DNA of 50,864 nt from contig JANODG010000088.1 in the NCBI GenBank assembly GCA_031412575.1, positions 1-50,864 on the forward strand, given 5' to 3'. The notes below the pieces were generated by a model. The model made no database searches, was not told the origin of the DNA, and worked only from the letters and a program-made list of their open reading frames with translations. The translations under genes and the position numbers were made by a program. Shown piece by piece: positions 2,273 through 48,179 of the stretch; the first letter of the stretch is position 1; every line of letters begins with the position of its first letter. Source of the DNA: Bdellovibrionales bacterium. GTDB taxonomy: Bacteria > Bdellovibrionota > Bdellovibrionia > Bdellovibrionales > UBA1609.

Positions 2273-4216
2273 TTAAAAATAATAATTAAGGTTTACCCCT
2301 AAACTTGTGGACTCAAGGTCTTTGGACTTTAGATAATCTGCATCCAATGAAATTGAAGAGCTTAAACTTTCAAAATAGTTTTGAAATCGCACTGAAGTTT
2401 GAATGATATTTTCAAAAGCGTTTGAAAAGTCAGTCACAAAAAGTGGTTTGGTTTCAAAAACTAAATTTGTATCTTGCCTCATATTATATTTAAATCCAAA
2501 AAGTGGTGCTACACCATAACGAGCCTTATTTTTAAATCGTCCATTCACCTCAAGGGTGTTAGAAACAAAAAAGTATAATAGCCATGAATCATCTTTAAAA
2601 AGGGATTTAGAAACACCACTGTCGAAGTTAATAAAACCGACCGTCTTGGTCCAATCTTTCAGATACTGTTCGGAATCTAATCCCATTTTAAATCGCCAAC
2701 TAAATTTAGACTCTAATTTATTAATAGGGGTAAATGACTCTACAGAAAGTATGTGCAAATAATTTAAAATTATTTCGTTATCTTTCGAAGAGTCCGTTAA
2801 GGATTGCCTTTCATTTAATAATATAGAAGTGTCTAAATAGTTCAGACCCAAATGCGGATTAAATCCTCGGTTTGAATCCAAAATGTCGTGAAATCCTAAC
2901 TTGTATTTTAAATTCAAACCGCCTTGTTTATAAACGTCGTTAAAATTCTGGGTCTTATATCCAAGACCAAATCGACGGGGTGGGTGAGATAAGTGCGGCG
3001 CATTTTTTAAATCCAAAGGCTTTACGGGATCAGGCGTAGACTTGGTCTGGCTTAATGCCAAAAGTAGGGGTTGTTTTTTTTTAAGTAGTGCGTCTTCATT
3101 GGCCACGTAATCATCAGCGTTTGTGTAGTCAAAATAAAGAAGTAAGGTTTTTAAAAAGTGAGGGTCAAAAGTTTTATCTTTCCAATTAATTCCTTTTTCT
3201 ACATTAAGGTCTTTTGTTAAAGACGTTAATGTTTTAATTTCGGAAGTATTAAGTAAATTAAATCTATCTAAAAGCTGTTGTCTTAAAGAGGGACGATATC
3301 TGATATTTTTTACCAAATCTTTCGATTTTAGCAAACTTTTAACTGTCTCTATGGGAACAACAAACGTACTACTAAAGTAATCGGCTAAATTAAGATCAGG
3401 TTTAATTGCTTCTAATACACGGATCGCCCAGTAGGAACAATTTTTATCTAAAAAGTAATACTTCGACCATGCAGACCCAAGCTCCCAGATGTGAAGGTTT
3501 AGGAATAGCATTTCTGCAGCGCTTAGGTTTAATTGATATTCCCATAAATCTCTGGACTCGTAGTCATTGTATTCTCGGACTTTGTAGTAAAACGGTGTAG
3601 CAGTAAATTCGCCAGGAAAAAATCCTAAAAGACCCTTTAAAGCGTAAAAGAATGCGTTTTTAGTGTCGACTGTGGCGGCGTAGTTAATGCCGTAATTTAA
3701 AAGATCTAAATCGTTAGATTCATCTTTATTTATTTTTAAGAATGTATGCCCAAAGGCTGATGAAGGATTATTAACAAAGTAACTTGAAAAAACCATGGAA
3801 GCCGATTGTCCTTGGAGTCGGTTCATAAATTCATTCATCTTTAAACATTTCGAAAAAATATTCATAGGAAATAGTTTAAGTTTTTGATTGATCCAAAAAA
3901 ATCGAGCAGGGAATCTACAAATGGGATGTTCATCATTAATTTGGGAGTCATCAGATTTGGTTTTTAAAATTTCAATAAAGCTTTGCAGTTCGATTAGGGG
4001 ATCTTTCAGACCTTGCTTCTTTAAAAAAAACTTTTGACTAAAAACTTCACTTTTATATTTATTCAAGCCTTTTTTTTCATAATAAAGAAGTCGAAGCCAT
4101 TCTTTCGAAAAAGCCAATTGATGATCATCATCTTTAGATTGTGCTAAGGCATTTGAAATTAACGATAGGTTAACAACGAAAAAAAATTTAATAAAAACTA
4201 AAAAAAAAAGTCTCAC
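2273..4216 (-). CDS. DUF4105-like (Lnb N-terminal domain) secreted protein with a probable beta-rich C-terminal half
   Basis: 647 aa with a GTG start and signal peptide ...SNALA/QS. The SSAFGHTFLKI motif is typical of DUF4105. The C-terminus ends in ...LNYYF, as in outer-membrane barrels. Confidence 0.5.
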   Translation of the reverse strand: MRLFFLVFIKFFFVVNLSLISNALAQSKDDDHQLAFSKEWLRLLYYEKKGLNKYKSEVFSQKFFLKKQGLKDPLIELQSFIEILKTKSDDSQINDEHPICRFPARFFWINQKLKLFPMNIFSKCLKMNEFMNRLQGQSASMVFSSYFVNNPSSAFGHTFLKINKDESNDLDLLNYGINYAATVDTKNAFFYALKGLLGFFPGEFTATPFYYKVREYNDYESRDLWEYQLNLSAAEMLFLNLHIWELGSAWSKYYFLDKNCSYWAIRVLEAIKPDLNLADYFSSTFVVPIETVKSLLKSKDLVKNIRYRPSLRQQLLDRFNLLNTSEIKTLTSLTKDLNVEKGINWKDKTFDPHFLKTLLLYFDYTNADDYVANEDALLKKKQPLLLALSQTKSTPDPVKPLDLKNAPHLSHPPRRFGLGYKTQNFNDVYKQGGLNLKYKLGFHDILDSNRGFNPHLGLNYLDTSILLNERQSLTDSSKDNEIILNYLHILSVESFTPINKLESKFSWRFKMGLDSEQYLKDWTKTVGFINFDSGVSKSLFKDDSWLLYFFVSNTLEVNGRFKNKARYGVAPLFGFKYNMRQDTNLVFETKPLFVTDFSNAFENIIQTSVRFQNYFESLSSSISLDADYLKSKDLESTSLGVNLNYYF

Positions 4217-4240
4217 AGGATTGAATGTAGTCTGTGAGAC
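4201..4240 (-). terminator. intrinsic terminator (9-bp stem GTCTCACAG/CTGTGAGAC, 13-nt loop, then T9 on the minus strand)
   Basis: Inverted repeat at 4210-4218 and 4232-4240, with an A9 run at 4201-4209 on the plus strand. It lies downstream of the 4299-4778 gene and overlaps the GTG start of the next gene. Confidence 0.55.
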
Positions 4241-4298
4241 TGGTTTTGCAAATGTTTATTTGGCTGATTATTTTAACTGGTTTTTTAAATTGAATAGT

Positions 4299-4778
4299 TT
4301 AACCTAAATCGGCCTGGCACATTTTTGAACTTTGGAGAACAGCATCCATATTTTTTACGATCTGTTCTGTGCTTAACTCGCGGCTTGAAACAACATTGCT
4401 GTAGTTTGATTTCATAAGGTCGGCAAACTCCGTGGCACTCTTGCAATTATAAATGTGAGCTAATACAGAAACAGTTTCCCCTTGCCCTAAAGCAAGCTCG
4501 TTGACTACAGCATTTTTGTTAGCCGCGATGAAAACTTTAGCGCGATCTGATTTTAACGCCAATTTGTTTGCGTCACAGTTTAATGAACCAAAAGTGATTC
4601 CAAAAGTTTGGTTAAAAAACAAAGCGTTTGTTGTTGCGGCCATACCTTGCTCAAACCACTGATTTTTGCCTTCAAAAATAATCGAGCCTATTCCACATCC
4701 TGCGGCACCGTAGCCTGCGGCAAAAGTTTTTATTCCAAAGCATAACATGAGTGTTAAAGCTGCTATTATTTTCATTGC
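4299..4778 (-). CDS. DUF3015-like small secreted protein
   Basis: Start moved to MKIIAALTL..., which has an AGGAGA RBS 7 nt upstream. Signal peptide present. The AAGYGAAGCGIGS motif resembles DUF3015 proteins. Confidence 0.55.
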   Translation of the reverse strand, partial: AMKIIAALTLMLCFGIKTFAAGYGAAGCGIGSIIFEGKNQWFEQGMAATTNALFFNQTFGITFGSLNCDANKLALKSDRAKVFIAANKNAVVNELALGQGETVSVLAHIYNCKSATEFADLMKSNYSNVVSSRELSTEQIVKNMDAVLQSSKMCQADLG

Positions 4779-18783: not shown

Positions 18784-20457
18784 ATGATAGACTTGAAAAC
18801 AACAATGACAACATCAGAAAACATCAACTCTATCATCATCGGCTCACGTCAAAGTGACTTAGCTAGGTTACAAGCTTTAACCGTGGGCGAGCTTCTAATT
18901 AAAACAATTCCAACCCTTAAAATTGAATACTTTAATCGTCCGTCGTTTGGGGATTTAAATTTAGACATGAATTTAAAAGAAACTAATTCTAAAGGGGTTT
19001 TCACCCAAGAATTTAAGGACTTATTAAAAAACGGGGACTGTGATTTTGTCGTTCATTCTTGGAAAGACTTGCCCATTGAAAATGATCCAATGACTGAGAT
19101 CCTAACAGTGTCCGAAAGAGAAGATCAAAGAGATCTGCTATTTCTAAAAAATACATCGATTGAAAAGTTTAAAACCAAGGGTGAATCGTCGCCTGGTCAC
19201 AAAAACAAAAAAAGTAGTTTGGTGTTTTTAACATCAAGCCCAAGGCGTGAATACAGTTTAAAAAATTCATTGAAAGACCTTTTGCCTTTTGCAGTCTCCG
19301 AAATTAATTTCGAAGCGATACGAGGAAACATTCCGACCCGATTTTCGAAATTTTTAAATTCAAATGCTGATGGGTTTGTGGTTGCAAAAGCAGCTGTAGA
19401 TCGTTTGATGTCTACAAAAAACATGTCTTGTGCCGACGAGTTTAAATCTATCCGTGAACAGATTTCGAAAGTTTTTAAACACTGCCGATTTATGGTTTTA
19501 CCTTTATCGGAATTTCCTACAGCTGCCGCTCAAGGGGCTTTAGCTATCGAAATTTTAAAGGATCATCCTTTTAAAAAAAAGTTACTTCAAATCGCTGATC
19601 AAACCAATTACGATCTGGTTGAATTAGAACGTCAAACCCATAAACGGTACGGTGGGGGATGTCATCAGGCGATGGGATTTTCAGCATTGAAAACGGAACA
19701 GGGCACTGTGTTTTATTCGTCAGGTGAATTTAAGGATAAAGGTTTTAAAACGAGTCAGCTGATCCCAGACAAGAAATTAAACTCTGTGTTTAAGACGAAT
19801 CAGCTGTTTTCACAGTCGAGCCTAAAATCAGTGAGACAAAAAAGTTTTTTGCACTTAAAAGAAATTGGGGCCGAGCAACTGTTTAGACCTAATTCAGAAT
19901 TCGTCGTGACAAGATATGAAGCCCGTTTAGAGGATTTAAAAAATGAAGAATTCATTGTTTGGGCCTCTGGGACTAAAACATGGAAAAAACTTTCAGAAGA
20001 CGGATATTGGATTAGTGGATCTTTAGATGGTTTGGGAGTAGGGCATAAACCTGAGCTTCCATATTTACATTCAAGCGATGATGAAAAAGATATTTTGCCC
20101 AATAGGAATGAAGACAATTCGACGGATTATATCTGGCTCACAAATTTTTCGTCTATGAATATTTCCGAAGGTGAAGTTACAGAAAGGTTCAAGATGATGT
20201 CCACTTATGAATTGCAGTATGATTTGGATTCGATCAAAGACACTTTACTTAAAGATCTAAAAAACAAAGAATGCTTTTTTTGGATGAGTGGGCATGGGTT
20301 TGAATCCGTGCTTGAAACTTACCCCGAGCTAAAATCCAAAATTCATTTTTGCGGTTTAGGGCGAACGGTGGAAACGTTAAAAAAACATTTGCCCGAAGAT
20401 CAAATTTATTTTTGTTTAAACGAAACTGATTTTGTGAATAAGTGCACAAAATCTTAA
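18784..20457 (+). CDS. hemC: hydroxymethylbilane synthase with a ~230-aa C-terminal extension (candidate fused uroporphyrinogen-III synthase)
   Basis: HemC motifs are IIGSRQSDLARLQA, RGNIPTRFSKF, PTAAAQGALAIE and the cofactor Cys in GGCHQAMG. The protein is 557 aa against about 310 for HemC alone, and no separate hemD lies in the locus. Confidence 0.8.
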   Translation: MIDLKTTMTTSENINSIIIGSRQSDLARLQALTVGELLIKTIPTLKIEYFNRPSFGDLNLDMNLKETNSKGVFTQEFKDLLKNGDCDFVVHSWKDLPIENDPMTEILTVSEREDQRDLLFLKNTSIEKFKTKGESSPGHKNKKSSLVFLTSSPRREYSLKNSLKDLLPFAVSEINFEAIRGNIPTRFSKFLNSNADGFVVAKAAVDRLMSTKNMSCADEFKSIREQISKVFKHCRFMVLPLSEFPTAAAQGALAIEILKDHPFKKKLLQIADQTNYDLVELERQTHKRYGGGCHQAMGFSALKTEQGTVFYSSGEFKDKGFKTSQLIPDKKLNSVFKTNQLFSQSSLKSVRQKSFLHLKEIGAEQLFRPNSEFVVTRYEARLEDLKNEEFIVWASGTKTWKKLSEDGYWISGSLDGLGVGHKPELPYLHSSDDEKDILPNRNEDNSTDYIWLTNFSSMNISEGEVTERFKMMSTYELQYDLDSIKDTLLKDLKNKECFFWMSGHGFESVLETYPELKSKIHFCGLGRTVETLKKHLPEDQIYFCLNETDFVNKCTKS

Positions 20458-24830: not shown

Positions 24831-26170
24831 TTGATCTATTAAGTAAGTACGATGTTCCCGTACCACGTTACACTAGCTATCCTACAGTGCCTTACTGGCA
24901 AGATAACCCGACATCCAAAGAATGGCTTTCTTCCTTAGAAAAACATTTTTCTAAAGACGATGCCACTTGGTCTATGTACTTACACATTCCTTTTTGTGAA
25001 ACCTTATGTACCTTTTGTGGCTGTAACACCATCATTACAAAAGATCATAAACGTGAACATCCTTACGTAACTCACTTGTTATCGGAATGGAAAATCTATT
25101 TAGATAAAATGCCGTATATTAAAGATAAAGAATTAAAAGAGATCCACTTAGGTGGAGGAACTCCAACTTTTTTAAGTTCTGAAAATTTAGTTTTTTTGAT
25201 GACCAATCTTTTTAAAGATATTAAAAAATCCAAAGACTTTGAAGCTTCCATCGAAGTGGACCCAAGACGCACAACTTCTGATCAGCTTAAGGCCCTATAT
25301 GACATTGGGTTTCGCAGGGTCAGTATGGGTGTACAGGATTTTGATCCTGAAGTGCAACGCCTAGTAAACCGTATACAGCCAGAAAGTATGACTTTGAATT
25401 TAACCCAAAGAGCTAGGGCCATGGGTTACACTTCCGTCAATTATGATTTGATTTACGGTTTACCAAAACAAACCAAAGCAAGTATAAAGACACTTGCTGA
25501 AAAAACCTTAGAACATAAACCAGACCGCATAGCTTTATATTCTTTTGCCTTAGTGCCATGGATTAAACCTACGCATAGGCTTTACAAAGATGAAGATTTG
25601 CCAATGGGTTTAGAAAAGCGTGAGCTTTATGAAATCGCACGAACCATTTTACTTAAAGGTGGTTACAAAGAAATCGGAATGGATCACTTTGCATTGCCAA
25701 CGGATTCTTTATCGAAAGCTTTGCAAAGTAAAAAACTTCACAGAAATTTTATGGGTTACACTCATCACAGATCAGATATATTGTTGGGTTTAGGGGTAAG
25801 TTCGATTTCTGAAACTCCAGATTGTTTTCACCAAAATGAAAAAAAATATCAGATCTATCAAAGATTTATCGAGCAAGAACAAATTCCAACTCTTCGTGGG
25901 CATAAACTTTCTGATCAAGACCGAAAACGACGAGAACAGATTTTAAAACTCATGACCACTTGGGAAACTGTTTTAGATGATTTTAAACATGAAGAAGAAG
26001 TGAAAGTGTTTTTAAATGAACTGATTCAAGATGGTTTAGCTAAAGTCGAAAATCAAAAAATTATGGTGACAGAAAAAGGTCAGCCGTTTTTAAGAAACAT
26101 ATGCATGTCTTTAGATGAACGCTTGCGCTTAAATAAGCCAACTCAACAGGTGTTTTCAAAAGCGCTATGA
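24827..26170 (+). CDS. hemN: oxygen-independent coproporphyrinogen III oxidase (radical SAM)
   Basis: ATGA overlap with hemE. It has the HemN-specific PRYTSYPTVPYW motif and the radical-SAM motif CETLCTFCGC. Confidence 0.92.
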   Translation: MIDLLSKYDVPVPRYTSYPTVPYWQDNPTSKEWLSSLEKHFSKDDATWSMYLHIPFCETLCTFCGCNTIITKDHKREHPYVTHLLSEWKIYLDKMPYIKDKELKEIHLGGGTPTFLSSENLVFLMTNLFKDIKKSKDFEASIEVDPRRTTSDQLKALYDIGFRRVSMGVQDFDPEVQRLVNRIQPESMTLNLTQRARAMGYTSVNYDLIYGLPKQTKASIKTLAEKTLEHKPDRIALYSFALVPWIKPTHRLYKDEDLPMGLEKRELYEIARTILLKGGYKEIGMDHFALPTDSLSKALQSKKLHRNFMGYTHHRSDILLGLGVSSISETPDCFHQNEKKYQIYQRFIEQEQIPTLRGHKLSDQDRKRREQILKLMTTWETVLDDFKHEEEVKVFLNELIQDGLAKVENQKIMVTEKGQPFLRNICMSLDERLRLNKPTQQVFSKAL

Positions 26171-27372
26171 AGAAAGTCGCCATCATCGGATTTGGATTTT
26201 CTGGACTGTCTGCAGCTTGGGCTTTTGCAAGGCGCGGGCATGATGTGGAAGTTTTTGAAAAAGTATCAAAAATTGGTGGAATACTTCAAACTGAAAACTC
26301 TGAGTTTGGGATTATAGAAACCGCCGCCAATGCTATTTTACGCTCGGAAAACGTAAGCGTGATGGCTAAGGACTTCGATATCACCTGGGCTGAGCGAAAG
26401 AAATCTGCTAAAGCTAAATGGGTATTCACAGATAAACCAAGACGCTGGCCACTGACTACGATTGAGACTTTAAAGTTCATAAACCCGATGTTTAAATTAG
26501 CTCTGGGATCTGAAAGTATAAAACCAAAAAGTTTAGAGTCCGTCGCTAATTGGGGACAAAGGGTTTTTAAATCTCCAGTGTTTGTCGATCATCTTTTGGG
26601 TCCTGCACTTCAAGGAGTTTATGCAAATTCATCTGATCATCTTTCAGCCTCTTTATGTTTAAACACTTTTTTTGCCACCCAAAAAATAAGACATGAAGGA
26701 TCACACGCACCAAAAAAAGGAATGTCAGACTTTTTTAATTCTGGATTAAAATTTTTAACGAAACATAATAATTTTAAATTAAATCTAAATTCTCAAATCA
26801 CAAATTATGAAAATTTAGATGCAGACATCATTTTAGACACGCGCCCAGACCCTATAAACGTAAATTATTTAAGTGTTTATTCACTAACATTATTTTTCAG
26901 AACAGAAGACCGCCCGAAGTTTCAAGGGTTCGGTTGCTTGTTTGCGAAATCTAAAAGCGTACTAGGAGTCTTATTCAACTCCGACATCTTCGAAGACCGC
27001 ACTAAAGAAGACCTTTTTAGTGAGACCTGGATTATCACGCCCGCTGCAGGCGGAAAAGTTCCAGCGAAGAGCGCAGGGCGTGCGCAGCCGCCCGAAGAGC
27101 GCTCGAGTGAACTAGACATGATCAAACACACCCTCGCTTTTCGCGAACAAGCCTTCGGCATAAAATCCGAACCTGTATTCTCGAAGCTCACTCATTGGCC
27201 ACAAGGTATTCCCAACTACAGCCTTCAACATGAGACTTTCTTACAGGATAAATTTAAATTTGAAACTTCGATGGGACAGACTAAGATATTCAAAATCGGA
27301 AACTACACGGGGCAAATTGGTCTCAATAAAATGTTAGAAGAAAATGTAAAATTAGCTCGTAAATTCAGCTGA
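26167..27372 (+). CDS. hemY: FAD-dependent protoporphyrinogen oxidase carrying an in-frame repeat-element insertion
   Basis: ATGA overlap with hemN. It has the dinucleotide-binding N-terminus KVAIIGFGFSGLSAAW...EVFEK and sits between hemN and hemH. Residues ~292-318 (AAGGKVPAKSAGRAQPPEERSSELD) are encoded by the GC-rich repeat. Confidence 0.72.
   Translation: MKKVAIIGFGFSGLSAAWAFARRGHDVEVFEKVSKIGGILQTENSEFGIIETAANAILRSENVSVMAKDFDITWAERKKSAKAKWVFTDKPRRWPLTTIETLKFINPMFKLALGSESIKPKSLESVANWGQRVFKSPVFVDHLLGPALQGVYANSSDHLSASLCLNTFFATQKIRHEGSHAPKKGMSDFFNSGLKFLTKHNNFKLNLNSQITNYENLDADIILDTRPDPINVNYLSVYSLTLFFRTEDRPKFQGFGCLFAKSKSVLGVLFNSDIFEDRTKEDLFSETWIITPAAGGKVPAKSAGRAQPPEERSSELDMIKHTLAFREQAFGIKSEPVFSKLTHWPQGIPNYSLQHETFLQDKFKFETSMGQTKIFKIGNYTGQIGLNKMLEENVKLARKFS
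27039..27118 (+). repeat. GC-rich multi-hairpin repeat, copy A (intragenic, in-frame in hemY)
   Basis: GCCCGCTGCAGGCGGAAAAGTTCCAGCGAA-GAGCGC-A-GGGCGTGCGCAGCCGCCC-GAA-GAGCGCTC-GAGTGAACTAGACA. It shares both terminal boxes and the central hairpin with copies B-F. Confidence 0.9.
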
Positions 27373-32674: not shown

Positions 32675-33718
32675 ATGATTCTAAAAAAGGTTCAATTCGC
32701 CATTAAAGCGATTTTAGCATGGGTTTGTCTATCAAGCTTAGCTTTTGCTAATAGTACCGATGACAATTTTTGGCGTGATTTTCTAGCTAAGCATTACCCG
32801 CGAATAAGCTCTCAGGAAGCTTCACGATGGCAGTCACAAACTATAGAGATTTTTAAGTCTCAGGGGATTAATCATAGTCATCTGTCAAAGATTTCTCAGA
32901 GTGATTATTTTAAATTGTGGAATATCGCTTATGAATCGGCCCAAAGACCAAAGTTTGAGGATTTAATATTAATTGTTGATTTCTGGATTTCTGAATTAGG
33001 CTTAAAGAGTCTGAATCAATTTCTTAATAATACAACTCATTCAAACCCTTACCATATTTTTACAATAAATTTGGAAGGGTGGATTGCGTTTCGTGATCTG
33101 CTTTTAAATATTGGTGTTTTCGATGAAGATCCTCGCTCTGATAGAAGTGTGCAAGCATTTTTACTTAGATTTAATTGGGCGGAAGGAATTGCCACCAGCA
33201 AAAAAATGACCCCTGAGTTTTGGAATGGATGGAAAGATGTTTTTTTAAGTCATAAAACTATGAAATCTCAAGTGACCAAGTCTTTTAGTGTTTCTTACTT
33301 AAGTGATTATGCCAATCAAGATTTGATTCAACGATTATATGTTTCGCTGCCTCAGGGCTTACTTACATTATCGCTAAACAATGCAGATCTTATTTCCTCT
33401 GATTTGCTCATAGATTTTATAAACTCCGAAGATAAAATCTTGAGATCTGGGTTTGATGCCACGATCGAAGATACTCTTCGAACTCTAAATCAGTTGGTCT
33501 TAGGCAATATAAAAATATCGGGCAGACAATTCTCTGCAAGCGTTGCTAAATCGGTTGTTGCGAAATTAGTCTTTAGGGTCATGCGAGACCCTAATATAAT
33601 AAAAAACGAACGATATTTAAAATATGTAATTAAAGAAATTCTTTCGGATTTAAAAGAAGAAAGACTTCTAGAATCCACTAGGAGCGCGGGTAGAATCTGC
33701 GGGGAATATCTTAAATAA
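32675..33718 (+). CDS. hypothetical secreted protein
   Basis: 347 aa with signal peptide ...LAFA/NS. No family recognised. Confidence 0.5.
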   Translation: MILKKVQFAIKAILAWVCLSSLAFANSTDDNFWRDFLAKHYPRISSQEASRWQSQTIEIFKSQGINHSHLSKISQSDYFKLWNIAYESAQRPKFEDLILIVDFWISELGLKSLNQFLNNTTHSNPYHIFTINLEGWIAFRDLLLNIGVFDEDPRSDRSVQAFLLRFNWAEGIATSKKMTPEFWNGWKDVFLSHKTMKSQVTKSFSVSYLSDYANQDLIQRLYVSLPQGLLTLSLNNADLISSDLLIDFINSEDKILRSGFDATIEDTLRTLNQLVLGNIKISGRQFSASVAKSVVAKLVFRVMRDPNIIKNERYLKYVIKEILSDLKEERLLESTRSAGRICGEYLK

Positions 33719-33720
33719 GC

Positions 33721-33784
33721 ACACCGAAGGTGGAAAAACCAATCCGCGTGAGCTAGACAGCGCCGTATTGCGGCAGCCGGATTG
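33721..33784 (+). repeat. GC-rich repeat, truncated/degenerate copy
   Basis: CACC-GAA-GGTG hairpin plus GAAAAACC, fused to AATCCGCGTGAGCTAGACAGCGCC (compare AATCCGAGTGAACTAGACAGC in copy F). CAATCCG/CGGATTG pairing flanks it. Confidence 0.6.
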
Positions 33785-33874
33785 AAAAAAGATTAGTCAC
33801 TTAAACCTCAAATCTAAGTGAAGGACAGTACGATTAGGGAATGAAAATTGCCTTAAGTTTAATGGAGGTACGTT

Positions 33875-34804: not shown

Positions 34805-34955
34805 CGCCCCACGCAGTGGGAAAAGTTCCGCCCGCTGCAGGCGGAAAAGTTCCAGCGAGCACTTGGGGGCCACTGCATGCATCGCTGTACAGCTCTCGCA
34901 TGTGGCCGTCGTGCGAAGCCGCCCAAAAGTGTGCGAGTGAACTAGACAGCGCAAC
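34805..34955 (+). repeat. GC-rich multi-hairpin repeat, copy B (long form with extra internal hairpin)
   Basis: Two [stem-GCA-stem]-GAAAAGTTCC boxes (CCCAC-GCA-GTGGG and CCGC-TGCAG-GCGG), then AGCGAG, the outer stem CACTT/AAGTG, an extra GGCCAC...GTGGCC hairpin, and GAGTGAACTAGACAGCGCAAC. Confidence 0.9.
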
Positions 34956-38274: not shown

Positions 38275-38422
38275 TTGAACATAAGCTTAAGGCTTCGACG
38301 AACGTCTAGACTGAATTAATAATTATTTAATAAAATTTATCCAAATCAAAAATATCAACTCTGTAAGTTTAAGAATTAGAATTAAATTTTTATGTTTGAT
38401 CTTTTTATGTCGATATAAAACC

Positions 38423-40483
38423 ATGAGCCAATCCGCACTACAAAAAAATGAAGCCGAAGTCATTGAAGATCAAATTTTAAACCCGGAAGAGGAATCTGCC
38501 CAAATTGCAAATTTTGGTTTGGAAAAACCGGCAGGTCAAACTTCCAATAATAATCCAGAAAATCCCTCTGAAGCTTTTTTAACTTTTTTAAATCTTTACG
38601 AAAAAGATAAAAAAGAGGGGATTCCAAATTCTAAAACTGACATTGATGATCTAAATTCCAAGGAGCTTTTTTTAAATGATGTGGCCAGCCAACTTAAATC
38701 AGAATTTATTGGTCTAGATCAACAAATTGATAAAATCATAAATACATTACGTCCTTGGTATTTAATCCCTAAATCTTTAAATAAGCCCGTAATTTTATCT
38801 TTGTGGGGGATGTCTGGTGTTGGTAAAACAAGTTTGGTTTATCGCTTGGTTGAAAAATTAAATTTCGAAAGTACTTTTTTTAAATATGATTTGGGTAAAA
38901 TTTCTGATGTTCAAAGCGGAATGGGATATCATCTTTCATATTTTGCTAATCGCCAAAGTGTTTTATTCTTTGATGAAGTTCAAATGGCCAGAACCTTAGA
39001 TGCTGTAGGGCATGATATTGATCGCCCCCAACTTCGTGATTTCTGGACTTTATTAGACACGGGAATGCTTCCTATTTTATTCACTGAAATTGTTAGAATG
39101 AGAAACGACATCAAAAGCAGATATCAAGGTTTTGTCGCGAATCCTTATGGGCCTGAACTTTTAATGACAGATTATGATTTTGATTATTTAGCACCGGTCT
39201 TAGGGTTAAGCCGGGACTATAATACGCTTTTAAAAAAGTGTGTTGTCGACGACACCAATCGTTTGATGAATTGGATCATTAACGAAATAGAAAAAAAGAT
39301 TTCAAAAAACGTTTATGAAGATCACACCAAGGCTTTAATCATTTTAGCAGGTAACATTGACGAAGCGTATTCGCAGTTGATGACGGTAGAGCCTGATGAG
39401 TTTACGGCCGAAGAGCTTAAAGAAAATTTGAACACTGTGACGCCTACAAAAATTAAAAAGGGTTTACTGACTCGATTTAGAACCGAGCAAGTCGCAAGAA
39501 TGGGGACTTCTTTAATATTGTTTCCCACACCTTCAGAAAGTTCGTATCAAGGAATTATTAAGCAAAAGCTTTCTAGAATTGAAAACAAAATCAAAAAGGA
39601 TTTTGTTTTTGAATTTAAATTCGAACAATCAGTGCACGATATGATTTATAAAAAGGGTGTCATTCCCACTCAAGGTGTCCGCCCCATTTTATCTATGATC
39701 TCTGAACAGGTGGAATCTAGATTACCAACTTGGATTGTTGAAAGTGCAAAAAATGGATTTTCAGAATACAGCGTGAACTTCGACGGAGCTAAAAATGCTT
39801 TTACAATCAGTCACAAAAATAAAACCATATTTACAGATGTGCTATTAACGGAAATTGAAAGTATCAAAATTAAAATTCCTGATGCTAAATTCATTGAATA
39901 CTTAGCGATACACGAAGCTGCACATTTGGTTGTAGGGATTAGCTTAATGGGGATGTTGCCTCAACGAATAATTTTTAAAGAAAGTTTTGCTGGAAATGTT
40001 ATGCCTCAGGTCAGATTTAGACCTACATCCCTTTTAACTGCAAAAATTTCCATGGATTTTGTCGCAATGAACTTAGCGGGCTATGCGGCTGAAATTAAAA
40101 AGTACGGTAAGGAAGGTTTAAGTTCAGGGGCAACTATGGATCTTAAATCTGCAACAGGTTTAGTATCCCAAATGATCATGGAAATGGGTATGGGATCGCA
40201 CATAGGTGTCACACTGCCGCACCCAGATCTGGTTCACAACATCAAATCGATGCAAGCGGCCGACGACGAAGCCAAAGAAAAACTTCTTAAACAGGCCTAC
40301 GTGACTGCAGAACAAGAACTTAAAACACAATCCTTGTTTTATGATCACGTTGTTGAAGAACTAAAAACAAAACACTGTTTACCTCAAGAGCGCTTAGCCG
40401 AATTGCTGTTCAAACACTTCGAAGCCACAGACGAAGAAAAAGTAAATATCGTCAATCGTAAAAACCACAAGTATATGGATTAA
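38423..40483 (+). CDS. soluble AAA+/P-loop ATPase fused to an FtsH-type (M41) zinc-metallopeptidase domain
   Basis: Walker A is GMSGVGKTS and Walker B is VLFFDEVQ. The C-terminal AIHEAAHLVVG (HEXXH) ...NLAGYAAEIKKYG...SGATMDLKSATGLVSQMIMEMGMG parallels the FtsH protease domain. The N-terminus has no TM helix. The start is set at MSQSAL. Confidence 0.78.
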   Translation: MSQSALQKNEAEVIEDQILNPEEESAQIANFGLEKPAGQTSNNNPENPSEAFLTFLNLYEKDKKEGIPNSKTDIDDLNSKELFLNDVASQLKSEFIGLDQQIDKIINTLRPWYLIPKSLNKPVILSLWGMSGVGKTSLVYRLVEKLNFESTFFKYDLGKISDVQSGMGYHLSYFANRQSVLFFDEVQMARTLDAVGHDIDRPQLRDFWTLLDTGMLPILFTEIVRMRNDIKSRYQGFVANPYGPELLMTDYDFDYLAPVLGLSRDYNTLLKKCVVDDTNRLMNWIINEIEKKISKNVYEDHTKALIILAGNIDEAYSQLMTVEPDEFTAEELKENLNTVTPTKIKKGLLTRFRTEQVARMGTSLILFPTPSESSYQGIIKQKLSRIENKIKKDFVFEFKFEQSVHDMIYKKGVIPTQGVRPILSMISEQVESRLPTWIVESAKNGFSEYSVNFDGAKNAFTISHKNKTIFTDVLLTEIESIKIKIPDAKFIEYLAIHEAAHLVVGISLMGMLPQRIIFKESFAGNVMPQVRFRPTSLLTAKISMDFVAMNLAGYAAEIKKYGKEGLSSGATMDLKSATGLVSQMIMEMGMGSHIGVTLPHPDLVHNIKSMQAADDEAKEKLLKQAYVTAEQELKTQSLFYDHVVEELKTKHCLPQERLAELLFKHFEATDEEKVNIVNRKNHKYMD

Positions 40484-40484
40484 A

Positions 40485-40599
40485 GCCCGCAGAAGGAAAA
40501 GTTCCGCCCGCGGCAGGCGGAAAAGTTCCAGCGAGTTGGCCTTAAGGGCGTGCGAAGCCGCCCTAAAGGAAGGCCAACGAGTGAACTAGACAGCGCAAC
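40485..40599 (+). repeat. GC-rich multi-hairpin repeat, copy C (archetypal)
   Basis: GCCCGCAGAAGGAAAAGTTCC-GCCCGCGGCAGGCGGAAAAGTTCC-AGCGAG-TTGGCCTT-AA-GGGCGTGCGAAGCCGCCC-TAAAGG-AAGGCCAA-C-GAGTGAACTAGACAGCGCAAC. It begins 1 nt after the TAA stop of the upstream gene. Confidence 0.92.
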
Positions 40600-42449: not shown

Positions 42450-43625
42450 ATGAAAATGCAACATTTAATAGTAAAACGGATTTTAAAAGGCTCAATGCTT
42501 ACGTTTCTTTTTTCAGGCTTAATGGCTTGTAAAGAATCTGATGGATTTTCATCTGCAAAAGGTGGAATCGAAGGCTTTACACATGCACGTGTACAACCGG
42601 TTGTGTTGATACCATTAACTGAAGAAGCCGCTCAAGGCATTCAAGATCGTTTAGAAGCTTTAGCTAGTTTAGAAGAAAACATCGAACTTAAAGATGAACG
42701 CATTCAACAATTAGAGGACGAACTTGCTGAACGAGTAAGTGCTTTGGATGCAAAGATTCTTGAAAATCAAACTAAACTTTTAGCAATTCAATCACAAAAC
42801 GGCGACATCACTCCAAATGATGTTCGTAAGATGAATCAAGAGCGCGCGGAATTAAAAGCACAAGTTGACCAATTTACGGAAGAGTATTTAGAAAATGTTG
42901 AAAATTACAAAGCTGAATTCGAAACCATGATCGCAAGCTTTTCTGAATTAGTGACTGAGCTGTCGAAATATGAATCTACGGAAGAACTTGAAAGTTTTAG
43001 AACTTTGATTTTAGAGAAGTTAAAAGTTTTAGAAGCTGACCGTGATTTAGTTTTAGCGCGTATCTCAGAAAAAGAATCTTCAATTTCAGAACTTCAATCA
43101 CGAATTGCAGATCTTGAAGGCGACACAAGCCCGGAAGCTATATCTGAACTTAATGGATTAAAAGAAGACCTGGTTGAAGAGCAATCAAGTCTTGCAGAAG
43201 ACGCAGCAATAGCTGGTGCATTGAATGGTTTACTTGAATCTTCTAACGAAGTTTTAGCTCCAGTAACTCCAGTAATGCCAACAGGTGCAGCTTTGGATCA
43301 GCCATCGACGCCAGTAGCAGGTGATGTTCCGGTGATCAGTAACCAGTTAACTCCAGCAGCACAGGCTATGGAAATAAATCAACAGATCAAGGATCTTAAG
43401 GCTGCTAACGAAAGTTTAAACGCCATTCTTGCTTCGTTAAACGCTGAGATTAAACAGAAGGATGATGCGATTGCATTAAACAACACGACTCAATTACAAG
43501 TACAAAAGAGTGGTTTGTTAACAGAAAAATCAGAAACTTTGGAAGCCATCACAATGAATGAAGCTAAAATCGCTCCATTAAAAGTGGCATTAACTCGCCT
43601 CCAACGAATGATCGTTGGTATGTAG
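42450..43625 (+). CDS. coiled-coil lipoprotein
   Basis: 391 aa with lipobox FSGLMAC and a long Glu/Leu/Lys heptad-like region. The TAG stop abuts repeat copy D. Confidence 0.6.
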   Translation: MKMQHLIVKRILKGSMLTFLFSGLMACKESDGFSSAKGGIEGFTHARVQPVVLIPLTEEAAQGIQDRLEALASLEENIELKDERIQQLEDELAERVSALDAKILENQTKLLAIQSQNGDITPNDVRKMNQERAELKAQVDQFTEEYLENVENYKAEFETMIASFSELVTELSKYESTEELESFRTLILEKLKVLEADRDLVLARISEKESSISELQSRIADLEGDTSPEAISELNGLKEDLVEEQSSLAEDAAIAGALNGLLESSNEVLAPVTPVMPTGAALDQPSTPVAGDVPVISNQLTPAAQAMEINQQIKDLKAANESLNAILASLNAEIKQKDDAIALNNTTQLQVQKSGLLTEKSETLEAITMNEAKIAPLKVALTRLQRMIVGM

Positions 43626-43741
43626 CCCCACGCAGTAGGAAAAGTTCCGCTCCGCGCAGCGGGAAAAGTTCCAGCGAAGTGCGCAGGGCGTGCGCAGCCG
43701 CCCGAAAAGCGCACGAGTGAACTAGACATCGCCCCCGCGCA
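43625..43741 (+). repeat. GC-rich multi-hairpin repeat, copy D
   Basis: CCCCAC-GCA-GTAGG-AAAAGTTCC, CCGC-GCA-GCGG-GAAAAGTTCC, AGCGAA, the outer stem GTGCGC/GCGCAC around GGGCGTGCGCAGCCGCCC, then GAGTGAACTAGACA. Confidence 0.92.
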
Positions 43742-43747
43742 CAAAGC

Positions 43748-43781
43748 AAAAAAAAGACACCTATCCAGGTGTCTTTTTTTT
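43748..43781 (+). terminator. intrinsic terminator (A8-GACACCT-ATCC-AGGTGTC-T8)
   Basis: Perfect 7-bp GC-containing stem with a 4-nt loop and a T8 tail. It lies immediately after repeat copy D. Confidence 0.8.
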
Positions 43782-43973: not shown

Positions 43974-44438
43974 ATGATTAAATCTTTTTTTGTTGTTCTA
44001 TCGTTTGCATGTTTGGGAACGGCCGCACAAGCTGTTAACTTAGATGGTTACTATCAGACATATGGCTGCGTTAACTATAAAGGGCAAAATGATACTCTAT
44101 GGTCGACGGTTGTTTCAATTCACCTAAGTTCAGATGGGCAAATAGCTGTTTCTGATCAAGTATTTGAAGGTCCAGATTGTAAGACCGCATATTTTGCGAG
44201 CCACAAATACGGAACTTATTTAGTCACTGGCGATAATCTTCGATTCAGCATGAATAAATCTAATTTTATCGTTCTTTCAAATTCTGAAGAGCTAAAAGAT
44301 ATTCCATCAAGTAGCGACGACGTAATCAAAGAAGAAGGCTACTATCTTTTAGAAACCTCATTTACTGCAGCAACCCGCGATGTGTCTATAAACTACGGCG
44401 GATTCAGATTGGGTAAAATTGGAATTTCTAATAAGTAG
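43974..44438 (+). CDS. hypothetical secreted protein
   Basis: 154 aa with an AGGAGG RBS and signal peptide ...AAQA/VN. Confidence 0.55.
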   Translation: MIKSFFVVLSFACLGTAAQAVNLDGYYQTYGCVNYKGQNDTLWSTVVSIHLSSDGQIAVSDQVFEGPDCKTAYFASHKYGTYLVTGDNLRFSMNKSNFIVLSNSEELKDIPSSSDDVIKEEGYYLLETSFTAATRDVSINYGGFRLGKIGISNK

Positions 44439-44512: not shown

Positions 44513-44545
44513 AAAAAAAAAGACACCCTTACAGGTGCCTTTTTT
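44513..44545. terminator. bidirectional intrinsic terminator (A9-GACACC...GGTGCC-T6), a paralogue of the one at 43748
   Basis: The 7-bp stem is fully paired on the minus strand (one G-U pair) and serves rpsD. It has one mismatch on the plus strand. Confidence 0.7.
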
Positions 44546-47890: not shown

Positions 47891-47980
47891 AATTTTCTCC
47901 TTTTAGGTTTTGTTTATTAAAAGGACATTTATCAGCACGCTATAATTAACAGCAGTTAGTCTTGGTTAGTTTGTAAATAA

Positions 47981-48080
47981 GAAAAGTTCCAGCGAGCACT
48001 TGGGCGTGCGTACGGAAGTCCCAGCGAAGCGGACTGAACGGTAGCCGCCCGAAAAGCGCACGAGTGAACTAGACAGCGCC
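47981..48080 (+). repeat. GC-rich repeat, copy E (chimeric, with a nested 33-nt hairpin in the central loop)
   Basis: GAAAAGTTCCAGCGAG-CACTTGGGCGTGCG-[TACGGAAGTCCCAGCGAAGCGGACTGAACGGTA]-GCCGCCCGAAAAGCGCAC-GAGTGAACTAGACAGCGCC. The 5' half resembles copy B. The 3' half is identical to copy D. Confidence 0.85.
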
Positions 48081-48165
48081 GTCCGCAGGACGAAAAGTTC
48101 CAGCGAGGACTGGCAAGGGCGTGCGAAGCCGCCCGAGAAAGCCAATCCGAGTGAACTAGACAGCA
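48081..48165 (+). repeat. GC-rich repeat, copy F (tandem to E)
   Basis: GTCC-GCA-GGAC-GAAAAGTTCC-AGCGAG-GACTGGC-AA-GGGCGTGCGAAGCCGCCC-GAGAAA-GCCAATC-C-GAGTGAACTAGACAGC. Confidence 0.9.
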
Positions 48166-48179
48166 AGCCACACGCAAGC

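Follow-up and report, generated by a model that had tools for sequence, protein, structure and literature searches.

The REP and BIME elements of proteobacteria, which are mobilised by RAYT/TnpA-REP, a HUH enzyme of the Y1 type, are short, GC-rich imperfect palindromes found in intergenic regions and 3' UTRs, often in mosaic or clustered arrangements, and their subfamilies have different stems and a shared, conserved foot motif. For many of them the upstream stop codon is no more than 15 nt away, in-frame insertion into genes occurs now and then, and the elements have neither long terminal inverted repeats nor target duplications. A GT[AG]G or CGTC tag at the foot of the hairpin serves as a criterion for REPs (PMC6006769, PMC3733652), their in-frame insertions and use of lagging-strand single-stranded DNA (ssDNA) have been documented (PMC6006769), and, according to the passage of PMC12306157 that cites Liang 2015, ribosomes are stalled by REPs lying 15 nt or less from a stop codon. 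Comparable behaviour is seen in the Rickettsia palindromic elements (RPEs), repeats of ~40-150 nt that occur between genes and in frame within protein-coding genes, where they add a peptide segment in variable stretches, and to which no mobilising enzyme is assigned. The PATEs of the IS200/IS605 group are recognised through one-strand hairpins with extrahelical bases, lack long inverted terminal repeats and target duplications, show a strand-biased orientation consistent with use of the lagging-strand template, and insert beside a short A/T-rich motif. Integron attC sites, in turn, pair conserved outer boxes around a variable palindromic centre with extrahelical bases, work as a folded single strand and sit 3' of ORFs.

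Within the window, by which we mean the whole analysed stretch of 50,864 nucleotides, we identified seven copies of a GC-rich, hairpin-forming modular repeat, six of them full and one degenerate, all on the + strand. The family comprises 20 solid copies in five genomes, mostly intergenic; its hosts are Bdellovibrionales, with a GC content of 35-39% in the sequences examined. The best reading of these data is that the repeat represents a new REP/BIME- and RPE-like structured family of short non-autonomous elements in this clade. Going further, we tentatively propose, at slightly worse than even odds (about 0.45), a repeat family defined by its structure, copied via ssDNA by an enzyme encoded in trans and persisting 3' of stop codons.

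At its 5' end each unit has zero to two small hairpins with GCA or GAA triloops, each followed by GAAAAGTTCC, which occurs nine times without mismatch in the window, always on the + strand. These small hairpins with their GAAAAGTTCC are optional and precede a core made up of a left box (GAAAAGTTCCAGCGAG), a variable stem (P2) enclosing a conserved bulged hairpin (P3; GGGCG-T-GC-GNA-GC-CGCCC), and a right box (CGAGTGAACTAGACAG). The right box, as GAGTGAACTAGACA, is exact in six copies and has two mismatches in the degenerate seventh, at 33746. The parts of copy C (40484-40599) illustrate this arrangement:

40484-40505, + strand: module 1, a degenerate small-hairpin remnant (AGCCCGCAGAAG) with GAAAAGTTCC (40496-40505), beginning directly after the TAA stop (40481-40483) of the ORF 38396-40483.
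40506-40529, + strand: module 2, a small GC-rich hairpin CCGC-GGCAG-GCGG, then GAAAAGTTCC (40520-40529); the stem lengthens to TTCCGCC/GGCGGAA via TTCC/GGAA pairing with the adjoining boxes.
40520-40535, + strand: left box GAAAAGTTCCAGCGAG, in which AGTTC (40524-40528) is the 5' strand of the closing stem P1.
40535-40543, + strand: 5' arm of the variable stem P2, GTTGGCCTT.
40546-40563, + strand: P3 hairpin GGGCG-T-GC-GAA-GC-CGCCC, in which the T at 40551 is a conserved bulge and GCGAAGC forms the mini-hairpin cap.
40570-40578, + strand: 3' arm of P2, AAGGCCAAC.
40578-40599, + strand: right box CGAGTGAACTAGACAG with the tail CGCAAC; GAACT (40583-40587) is the 3' strand of P1, paired with AGTTC.

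P2 of copy C consists of TTGGCCTT (40536-40543) paired with AAGGCCAA (40570-40577), and the pair G40535-C40578 brings it to 9 bp. The remaining copies in the window are:

27038-27123, + strand: copy A, in frame within the hemY-like ORF 26167-27372, where it encodes ...TPAAGGKVPAKSAGRAQPPEERSSELD...; P2 is GAGCGC/GCGCTC.
33719-33788, + strand: degenerate remnant copy with a CACC-GAA-GGTG hairpin, an F-type 3' arm (CCAATCC) and the right box GTGAGCTAGACAG, beginning directly after the stop of the ORF 32675-33718.
34805-34953, + strand: copy B, two small-hairpin modules (one hairpin is CCCAC-GCA-GTGGG) and a core with P2 CACTT/AAGTG and an extra hairpin (GGCCAC...GTGGCC) nested in P3, placed between the stop codon 34802-34804 and an intrinsic-terminator-like hairpin.
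43625-43733, + strand: copy D, between the native stop of the ORF 42450-43625, whose protein has a C-terminus conserved to the last residue, and its terminator hairpin (43748-43779); P2 is GTGCGC/GCGCAC and the small hairpin CCGC-GCA-GCGG.
47981-48080, + strand: copy E, a chimera with a B-type 5' half (CACTT) and a D-type 3' half (GCGCAC), a combination that disrupts P2; the P3 loop holds a nested mini-unit whose P1 is AGTCC/GGACT.
48077-48167, + strand: copy F, in tandem with E; P2 is GGACTGGC/GCCAATCC and the small hairpin GTCC-GCA-GGAC.

The repeat unit is a single long stem-loop formed by the + strand, in most cases the sense strand. Invariant sequence makes up its base, in which P1 (AGTTC/GAACT) is followed by a CAGCGAG/CGAGT internal loop, with GAAA as the 5' and AGACAG as the 3' flank, whereas the upper part may have almost any sequence provided that it pairs, from a 2-bp mini-hairpin to P2 plus P3 with nested extras. 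On the + strand the feet of the hairpin are CAGCGA(G/A) and GAAA; the - strand reads CTGTCT and TTCACTCG. The mostly intergenic copies agree with the REP definition of a repeated imperfect palindrome of 20-65 nt, and they share with REPs and BIMEs the mosaic or clustered arrangement, the proximity to stop codons, the occasional in-frame insertion and the lack of long terminal inverted repeats and target duplications; the foot tag is absent here. They also differ from REPs in having conserved boxes on both sides of the hairpin that pair with each other, in occurring as direct and never inverted units without REPIN doublets, in a hairpin interior that varies much more, both in sequence and in length (8 to 77 nt), and in their host clade, the Bdellovibrionales. 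The resemblance to RPEs is one of behaviour only: the variable stretches that receive a peptide segment are here one in hemY and the HemC-HemD linker, but host phylum and sequence are unrelated, copies lie mostly between genes and directly against stop codons, units are built from modules and can follow one another in tandem, and a hypervariable inner stem stands between invariant boxes. Compared with the PATEs, which are defined by subterminal hairpins at both ends and a conserved cleavage tetranucleotide 5' of the left end, the basic unit is one hairpin rather than separate left-end and right-end hairpins.

The sequence-only reading had held that the stems differ in each copy and remain complementary while their flanks are constant. 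The stems that it quoted for copies A, B, C, D and F are all present where it placed them (in F with 7 of 8 positions paired), as are its small hairpins of B, F, D and the remnant, and the pattern extends to other genomes. Each P2 arm pairs far better with its own partner than with arms swapped in from other copies, the basal paired run averaging 5.6 against 2.3 and the long-form duplex energies ranging from -6.5 to -13.6 against a mean of -4.25 kcal/mol. Plain alignment with MAFFT and RNAalifold mis-registered P2, and we therefore relied on a hand-registered alignment of 12 distinct stems and then on a covariance-model-fitted alignment of 20 copies, a small sample drawn from only five genomes, both of which show covariation. 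All six P2 pairs are changed on both sides in the 12-stem alignment, where 97.4% of cells are paired, compared to 79% in shuffles and 15-36% with slid partners, and 26 cells are compensatory against 7.3±2.2, a value reached in 0 of 500 shuffles. The corresponding figures for the 20 copies are 96.5% paired against 81.0% in shuffles and 32 compensatory cells against 9.5±2.2, again reached in 0 of 500 shuffles; over both alignments the slid-partner controls drop to 14-40% paired.

Covariation is not confined to P2. P1 appears as AGCGC/GCGCT and AGCTC/GAGCT in two related loci (L033 and L042) and as AGTCC/GGACT in the unit nested in copy E, and P3 varies between genomes (GGGCG/CGCCC, GAGGG/CCCTC, GGGGG/CCCCC and GGGTG/CACCC) around an invariant bulged T. 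The claim that the boxes are nearly invariant single-stranded elements accordingly needs amendment: their near-invariance is evident, but they are not purely single-stranded, given that AGTTC and GAACT form the covarying P1. As the stems vary yet remain complementary between fixed flanks, these observations support the folded strand as what is conserved, in the other genomes as well. The base-pair exchange between copies A and D described below counts in favour of this too.

One might argue that nothing is constrained and that the covariation reflects a handful of clonal subfamilies, or palindromes that arose by chance in GC-rich inserts. The concern about clonality has some substance within the window, where P2 falls into few lineages (B groups with the left half of E, D and A group with its right half, the 33719 remnant belongs with F, and C forms a lineage of its own), and the Z-scores of single folds, -0.4 to -3.1, are modest. 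It is the addition of the other genomes that gives the covariation its strength. With them, at least 11 distinct and unrelated stems from five genomes all pair, too many for clonality to explain, and this, together with the arm-swap, shuffle and slid-partner results and the covariation of P1 and P3, contradicts an absence of constraint, which is very improbable.

A different objection is that complementarity is kept by mutation rather than by selection. Template switching in hairpins of the ssDNA of the lagging-strand template ('quasipalindrome correction'), reportedly known from Ripley in 1982 and from work of the Lovett laboratory, copies one arm onto the other, so that stems would drift in sequence and stay perfect without any functional constraint on structure. 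The stems indeed come close to perfect pairing (all 9 pairs in C; all 6 in each of A, D, L033, L117 and L121), and copies A and D, which differ at 3 of 66 positions, differ at two of these by the clean flip of a single base pair, A-T to T-A. Such correction should erase asymmetric features, yet the bulged T of P3, the CA bulge and G.A/G.U positions of the foot and the 3' linker (GAAGA, TAAAGG and so on) persist across genomes; the invariant flanking boxes and the placement at stop codons described below are left unexplained, and copy E, being a chimera, shows that repair of the arms is not automatic. As a full account this explanation hence appears unlikely, but arm-to-arm templated correction in ssDNA hairpins could, besides selection, partly maintain the complementarity.

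Related copies were recovered only in other Bdellovibrionales genomes, and there the boxes are identical while the inner hairpin is wholly different yet paired. The 15-nt and 12-nt boxes are exact in relatives from other genera in which the hemY orthologue is only 51-57% identical. Scanning a genome collection with the 15-mer GAAAAGTTCCAGCGA gave 115 loci, almost all of them chance matches to a pattern that is too short, with only L033, L036, L042, L054 and L067 being real copies. JGI metagenomes and viral contigs yielded no match to the two-box pattern, and a looser metagenome scan gave two independent, ambiguous matches, about the number estimated by chance, which were left out of the analysis. 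None of the 182 word-sharing candidates from a peptide-profile search for in-frame copies scored, and exact-protein look-ups of window proteins, aimed at strain variants or empty sites, returned a 1.1-kb contig or nothing. Rfam gave no match at the gathering score in the window and seven related loci, and only noise at E<=10; blastn against phages and plasmids and a literature search for Bdellovibrio repeats were likewise without a match. By these Rfam, phage, plasmid and literature searches, the repeat family appears to be undescribed.

The insertion sites are lineage-specific: no copy occupies an orthologous site in the syntenic loci of relatives, and the further syntenic loci L119/L120, L123, L124 and L125 have no copies. 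The element is found in frame in two haem-synthesis proteins, as copy A in a variable stretch of hemY (orthologues do not have the ~18 residues at this position) and, at locus L117, in the HemC-HemD linker; a third in-frame copy lies only within a short, probably spurious ORF. Nested, chimeric and tandem copies occur, with all arrays head-to-tail and the tandem units being whole-unit duplicates joined by linkers of 2-5 nt without spacers. Decayed copies are common (33719, the third units of L054 and L121, and the second of L036). The element thus spread to non-orthologous sites, genic in-frame ones included, and is, or was, mobile.

The ends and surroundings are in keeping with the systems introduced above that lack terminal repeats: there are no terminal inverted repeats of ~10 nt or more, the sole complementary termini being the 5-nt AGTTC/GAACT, and no direct repeat is present at the junctions of A, B, C, D, L036, L042 and L121, a provisional result as the ends are not fixed by an empty site. 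The ~40 window ORFs scanned have so far revealed no transposase of any kind and no RAYT (tnpA-REP, Y1 HUH) gene, no tnpA or tnpB was found nearby, and the window yielded no integrase. On either side of the copies lie housekeeping genes in syntenic order (the haem operon, rpsD, sufE, yebC). This bears on the idea that the repeats mark gene cassettes, as recombination sites of the attC kind or as other folded-ssDNA sites of tyrosine recombinases, for which the paired outer boxes, the palindromic centre of very variable length, the extrahelical bases and the uniform orientation directly 3' of ORFs would speak. With syntenic housekeeping genes in place of cassettes, some copies inside ORFs, a box polarity (GTTC...GAAC) that is the reverse of attC R''(..AAC)...R'(GTT..), differing box sequence without RYYYAAC/GTTRRRY cores, and no integrase in the window, this idea is contradicted, and we consider it the least probable of the explanations weighed here.

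Several other candidates were also rejected. A MITE derived from a DDE transposon does not fit the termini and the lack of a visible target duplication, nor a CRISPR array the spacerless tandem duplicates. By eye, a hammerhead-like core is contradicted by a junction that is only two-way and by the wrong invariant bases, a K-turn by the lack of a 3-nt bulge beside tandem G.A, a SECIS- or PYLIS-type recoding signal by mixed stop codons and inconsistent box frames, and a sense-direction intrinsic terminator by the lack of a T-run.

At nine intergenic loci the element starts 0-7 nt past the upstream stop codon (Fisher p=4.6e-6), and a left flank of T-A/G-A/G(+A) in 11 loci coincides with, and is indistinguishable from, the stop codon itself. 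Of 12 loci, 11 have the element in the sense direction of the gene next to it, and at 8 of 8 loci the strand that carries it shows a positive GC skew, though the skew is confounded with the coding strand. Orientation in general is confounded with gene direction, and only E and F, which lie between two minus-strand genes and are antisense to them yet on the + strand, discriminate between the two.

This placement speaks for a reading in which the repeat is primarily a cis-acting RNA element at the start of a 3' UTR or intercistronic spacer, its structure being selected at each locus for the benefit of the host. The foot (GAAAAGUUC CAGCGAG ... CGAGU GAACU AGACAG) would then either be bound by a host RNA-binding protein or nuclease, or be melted by the terminating ribosome and so modulate termination, trans-translation, mRNA 3'-end stability or coupling to the next cistron. 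Besides the proximity to stops and the sense bias, copies B and D lie upstream of native terminators, and the element must therefore be in the mRNA; the non-Watson-Crick cells of P1 are all U.G, and P1b has a conserved G.U; and the boxes are 100% identical across genera despite the divergence of hemY. Folding both strands, as the sequence-only reading had suggested, likewise favoured the + strand under RNA parameters (p=0.003) and not under DNA parameters (p=0.11), a comparison inflated by the box G.U common to all copies. Arrival at new, in-frame, nested or tandem sites is not explained by this reading, which would need a copying mechanism anyway. Moreover, decayed copies are common, the genes beside E and F run antisense to them, an RNA would rarely rely on triloop GNA caps for stability, and there is no Rfam family even at E<=10. 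We hence regard a primarily RNA-level function as possible but on the unlikely side.

The reading that we prefer, copying via ssDNA, would proceed as follows. An enzyme encoded in trans, which would be of the HUH/Y1 type like RAYT or the IS200/IS605 TnpA, would read the conserved foot of the hairpin on single-stranded DNA, on the lagging-strand template, and make copies. If the foot is read as ssDNA, the stems must pair while their sequence is free to change. Copies would survive mainly immediately 3' of stop codons, where they would be co-transcribed as 3'-UTR or intercistronic hairpins, much as REPs no more than 15 nt from a stop influence translation and the fate of the mRNA. Hints of a DNA substrate come from the caps, GCGAAGC or GCGCAGC, and the cGCAg triloops of the small hairpins, types that are exceptionally stable DNA mini-hairpin motifs, d(GCGAAGC) having a Tm of 76.5 C compared to 39 C for the RNA tetraloop octamer r(GCGAAAGC) (PMC13037366, PMC3201870). 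Further hints are the common strand of all seven window copies, including the antisense E and F, and the positive GC skew, within the limits of confounding given above. Against this, some relatives have GC-TTCA-GC or GC-TTTA-GC caps, which are not DNA mini-hairpin motifs, and a DNA-level process does not readily account for the placement at stop codons. The lack of a transposase among the ~40 window ORFs, of the REP foot tag and of inverted doublets, and the better + strand fold under RNA parameters, also tell against this reading. Between the two options that the sequence-only reading had offered, a substrate of ssDNA transposition and a structured RNA, the evidence therefore points both ways.

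Two less conventional possibilities would address the placement directly. The hairpin unit might insert into the non-template strand exposed where ribosomes leave the mRNA (an R-loop or uncoupled transcription bubble), which would account for the sense orientation as well as for the 0-7 nt between stop codon and element, or the foot might be a sensor that the terminating ribosome melts, switching the fate of the downstream RNA. Both together strike us as improbable, but if either were true the mechanism would be one undescribed for bacterial repeats.

These findings add a family of structured repeats from a predatory clade that has received little study, with an unusually clean pattern of invariant pairing boxes around a hairpin that is free in sequence and length. 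This makes the repeat a good natural system for learning what a structure-specific enzyme or RNA-binding factor actually reads. The covariance model obtained here can be used to annotate the elements, which when unannotated create spurious ORFs and false gene fusions in MAGs. Finally, the placement at stop codons and the in-frame insertions in haem enzymes bear on how selfish hairpins are tolerated or co-opted and on whether the translational effect of a REP next to a stop codon holds beyond the enterobacteria.

The window carries seven copies of the hairpin repeat: six are full and one is degenerate. All lie on the + strand, and a covariance-model search recovered no - strand copy in the window.

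Copies of the hairpin repeat in the window
27038-27123, + strand: copy A, in frame within a hemY-like ORF
33719-33788, + strand: remnant copy, degenerate
34805-34953, + strand: copy B, with an additional hairpin nested in the inner hairpin P3
40484-40599, + strand: copy C, spanning the region 40485-40599 singled out by the sequence-only reading
43625-43733, + strand: copy D, between a stop codon and a terminator
47981-48080, + strand: copy E, a chimera
48077-48167, + strand: copy F, in tandem with E

As read from the sequence, the 5' part of the repeat comprises zero to two modules, each a small GCA- or GAA-triloop hairpin followed by GAAAAGTTCC. Next come the left box GAAAAGTTCCAGCGAG, the variable stem P2 and the conserved P3 hairpin, GGGCG-T-GC-GNA-GC-CGCCC, in which the T is bulged; a short A/G-rich linker then leads into P2's 3' arm, after which come the right box CGAGTGAACTAGACAG and CGC. 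The cores in the window are 55-61% GC, as against ~37% for the genome. For A, F and E the predicted folds, and for C the centroid fold, agree on a single long stem-loop. Every stem listed by the sequence-only reading was found in the sequence. Its view of the boxes as single-stranded fails for AGTTC of the left box and GAACT of the right box, which pair as the closing stem P1, so that the boxes are partly a closing helix; above P1 stand, in order, a CA bulge, a G.U/C-G step and what may be tandem G.A pairs, with P2 and P3 beyond them.

Beyond the window, genuine matches came only from Bdellovibrionales metagenome-assembled genomes.

Loci with related repeats
GFS_9291 (L033, L117): one long form and a minimal form; L117 holds one in-frame copy
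Pseudobdellovibrionaceae MFD03250.bin.2.22 (L036, L042, L067): short forms, with three tandem units in L042, and a variant unit
JTS-AC215 (L054, L121): three tandem units apiece, the final one degenerate or truncated

In most of these copies the boxes are identical (15/15 and 12/12 nt), and the interior is unrelated sequence of 8 to 77 nt that forms a hairpin in every case (e.g. GC-AGA-GC, GC-TAAG-GC, TCGGGC-TTTGA-GCCCGA, or GCTGAC...GTCAGC enclosing GGGGG-TGCTTTAGC-CCCCC). JGI metagenome contigs (L126-L130) contain GTTCCAGCGA...AGTGAACTAGAC in two independent sequences with short palindromic centres and without the GAAAA prefix; they may be short forms that have diverged strongly, or else matches by chance.

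The claim that stem sequence varies between copies while pairing is kept was borne out. In an alignment of 20 copies fitted to the model, 96.5% of cells were paired versus 81.0±1.4, with double changes in eight pairs and 32 compensatory cells versus 9.5±2.2, a count equalled by 0/500 shuffles. A hand-registered alignment of 12 distinct stems, with apical parts replaced by GAAA and a register that we chose ourselves and that is hence biased towards pairing, gave 97.4% paired cells, changes on both sides in all six P2 pairs, and 26 compensatory cells versus 7.3±2.2 (again equalled by 0/500 shuffles); slid controls of this alignment were 15-36% paired. The mean basal paired run was 5.6 for a copy's own arms versus 2.3 for cross-paired arms, and long-form duplex energies were -6.5 to -13.6 versus a cross-paired mean of -4.25 kcal/mol. 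P1 also covaries, as AGCGC/GCGCT (L033 3486-3513), AGCTC/GAGCT (L042) and AGTCC/GGACT (a mini-unit nested in E), with U.G as the only intermediate; P3 covaries between genomes, with GTGC and AGCC invariant. A and D differ at 3/66 positions, two of which are the two sides of one base pair.

The sequence-only reading had conceded that such a pattern might come from a few clonal subfamilies. Within the window P2 types are indeed shared: E matches B in its left half and D and A in its right half, and F matches the 33719 remnant. Subfamilies therefore exist; moreover, pairing in P2 has been lost in E, a B/D chimera, and recombination is thus able to break stems. Across genomes, at least 11 unrelated stems all pair, which rules out clonality as the cause of the covariation.

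The repeat is mobile, or was so in the past. No same-site copy was present in the syntenic loci of relatives (among them the haem operon, hemH, rpsD, sufE and yebC); the hemY product of the window is 51-57% identical to its orthologues in the three related genomes, and 59% to the closest orthologue database-wide. The protein upstream of D ends in ...LQRMIVGM* and its L117 orthologue in ...LQRVVVGL*, which places D exactly between a native stop codon and a native terminator. Copy A is read in frame within the hemY-like protoporphyrinogen oxidase (26167-27372), where it encodes ...TPAAGGKVPAKSAGRAQPPEERSSELD... in a variable stretch, adding ~18 residues absent from orthologues. An independent in-frame insertion (L117 4040-4135, ORF 3029-4681) lies in the HemC-HemD linker of a fused enzyme; this insertion and copy A use different frames for the left box and the same one for the right box, the sole stop-free frame there (SELD). 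A short form in L067 is in frame only within an ORF of 71 codons that overlies an intergenic array of repeats and is probably spurious. Hairpins are nested in B and at L067 4350, and tandem arrays occur in L042, L054 and L121; the array-final unit is truncated in L121 and L036 (second unit) and degenerate in L054 and L042. The complementary termini are the 5-nt AGTTC/GAACT only, no target duplication was seen at the repeat, and none of ~40 window ORFs codes for a transposase.

A second small hairpin family, GCCAC[T/A]GCATGC...TACAGCT..GCATGTGG, is nested in the repeat in two different genomes (window 34864-34908; L067 ~4321-4365) and appears to be a distinct module, either mobile or optional. 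L067 5892-6097 holds 36-nt tandem modules, CCCACC-GCA-GGTGAGG plus GTGAAACTCGAC, the latter resembling the right box; they start 1 nt past the stop of a rhomboid-like gene, flank one short-form unit and give rise to spurious ORFs on both strands. The HemC-HemD fusion of the window (18784-20457) has its own lineage-specific inserts (e.g. EKFKTKGESSPGHKN, HSSDDEKDILPNRNED), which are not repeat-derived. An AhpC/TSA peroxiredoxin ORF (786-1574) bears a ~110-residue N-terminal extension of lysine-rich 12-nt repeats (795-1032; KKVTKKVTKK...) resembling a histone H1 tail.

In nine intergenic loci, 0-7 nt separate the upstream stop codon from the start of the repeat block (Fisher's combined p = 4.6e-6, the null placing the block anywhere in the native spacer). 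The 5' flank is TAA, TAG or TGA, at times with one or more A, and as a DNA target this triplet and the stop codon are inseparable; further triplets of this kind within those spacers are unused. The repeat is sense to the neighbouring gene in 11/12 loci, and E and F are on the + strand even though they lie between two minus-strand genes. A sigma-70-like match, TTAAAA-18-TATAAT (47917-47946, +), stands just upstream of E/F, so that these two copies might have a transcript of their own. Matches to promoters are not enriched over shuffles. On the - strand, GC-rich hairpins by the GAAAAGTTCC boxes, followed by AACTTTTCC (40502-40522, 43647-43662, 48100-48113), scored terminator-like in a scan and could weakly stop antisense transcription. 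Two bidirectional terminator-like hairpins, 88% identical (AAAAAAAAGACACC...GGTGTCTTTTTT; 43748-43779 and 44514-44545), bracket a small ORF without known domain (43974-44438).

The mechanism is the weak point of our account. We tentatively favor, at a probability of about 0.45, that a trans-acting HUH-like enzyme would read the structure as single-stranded DNA, with copies being retained as 3'-UTR hairpins. The conserved extrahelical T of the repeat recalls the extrahelical bases of attC sites and the hairpins that IS608 TnpA recognises. The GCGAAGC/GCGCAGC caps and cGCAg triloops are 'mini-hairpin DNA' motifs, which occur at ssDNA phage origins and are SSB-resistant; d(GCGAAGC) melts at 76.5 C and the RNA tetraloop octamer r(GCGAAAGC) at 39 C (PMC13037366, PMC3201870). 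Movement that involves no long terminal inverted repeats and leaves no target duplication would also be in keeping with HUH enzymes (PMC6006769). In 8/8 loci the element strand has positive GC skew, in line with a lagging-strand template as the folded strand, but the skew is confounded with the coding strand. A purely RNA-level role, to which we give a lower probability, draws on the location of copies next to stop codons and 5' of terminators, on their sense bias and on the exclusively U.G mismatches of P1. The + strand also folds better than the - strand with RNA parameters (p=0.003) but not with DNA parameters (p=0.11), a test inflated by a box G.U common to all copies; and REPs lying up to 15 nt from a stop codon cause ribosome stalling, as Liang 2015 is cited in PMC12306157. 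The ssDNA and RNA readings are not exclusive, and under either a DNA-level copying mechanism of some kind is needed.

Among known systems, REP/BIME elements and Rickettsia palindromic elements are closest in behaviour; the repeat has neither the GT[AG]G tag nor inverted doublets, and on these two counts falls outside the REPs. We rejected a MITE on terminal inverted repeats and target duplication, and attC on the polarity of the boxes, on gene content and on the lack of an integrase in the window. Neither an Rfam family nor an entry in phage or plasmid databases matched the repeat, and no paper was found in the literature on Bdellovibrio repeats. The repeat is real and had not been described before; it falls within the wide class of structured repeats known from bacteria and is distinctive in its organisation: a free-form hairpin within invariant pairing boxes, direct tandem units, stop-codon adjacency and in-frame insertions.
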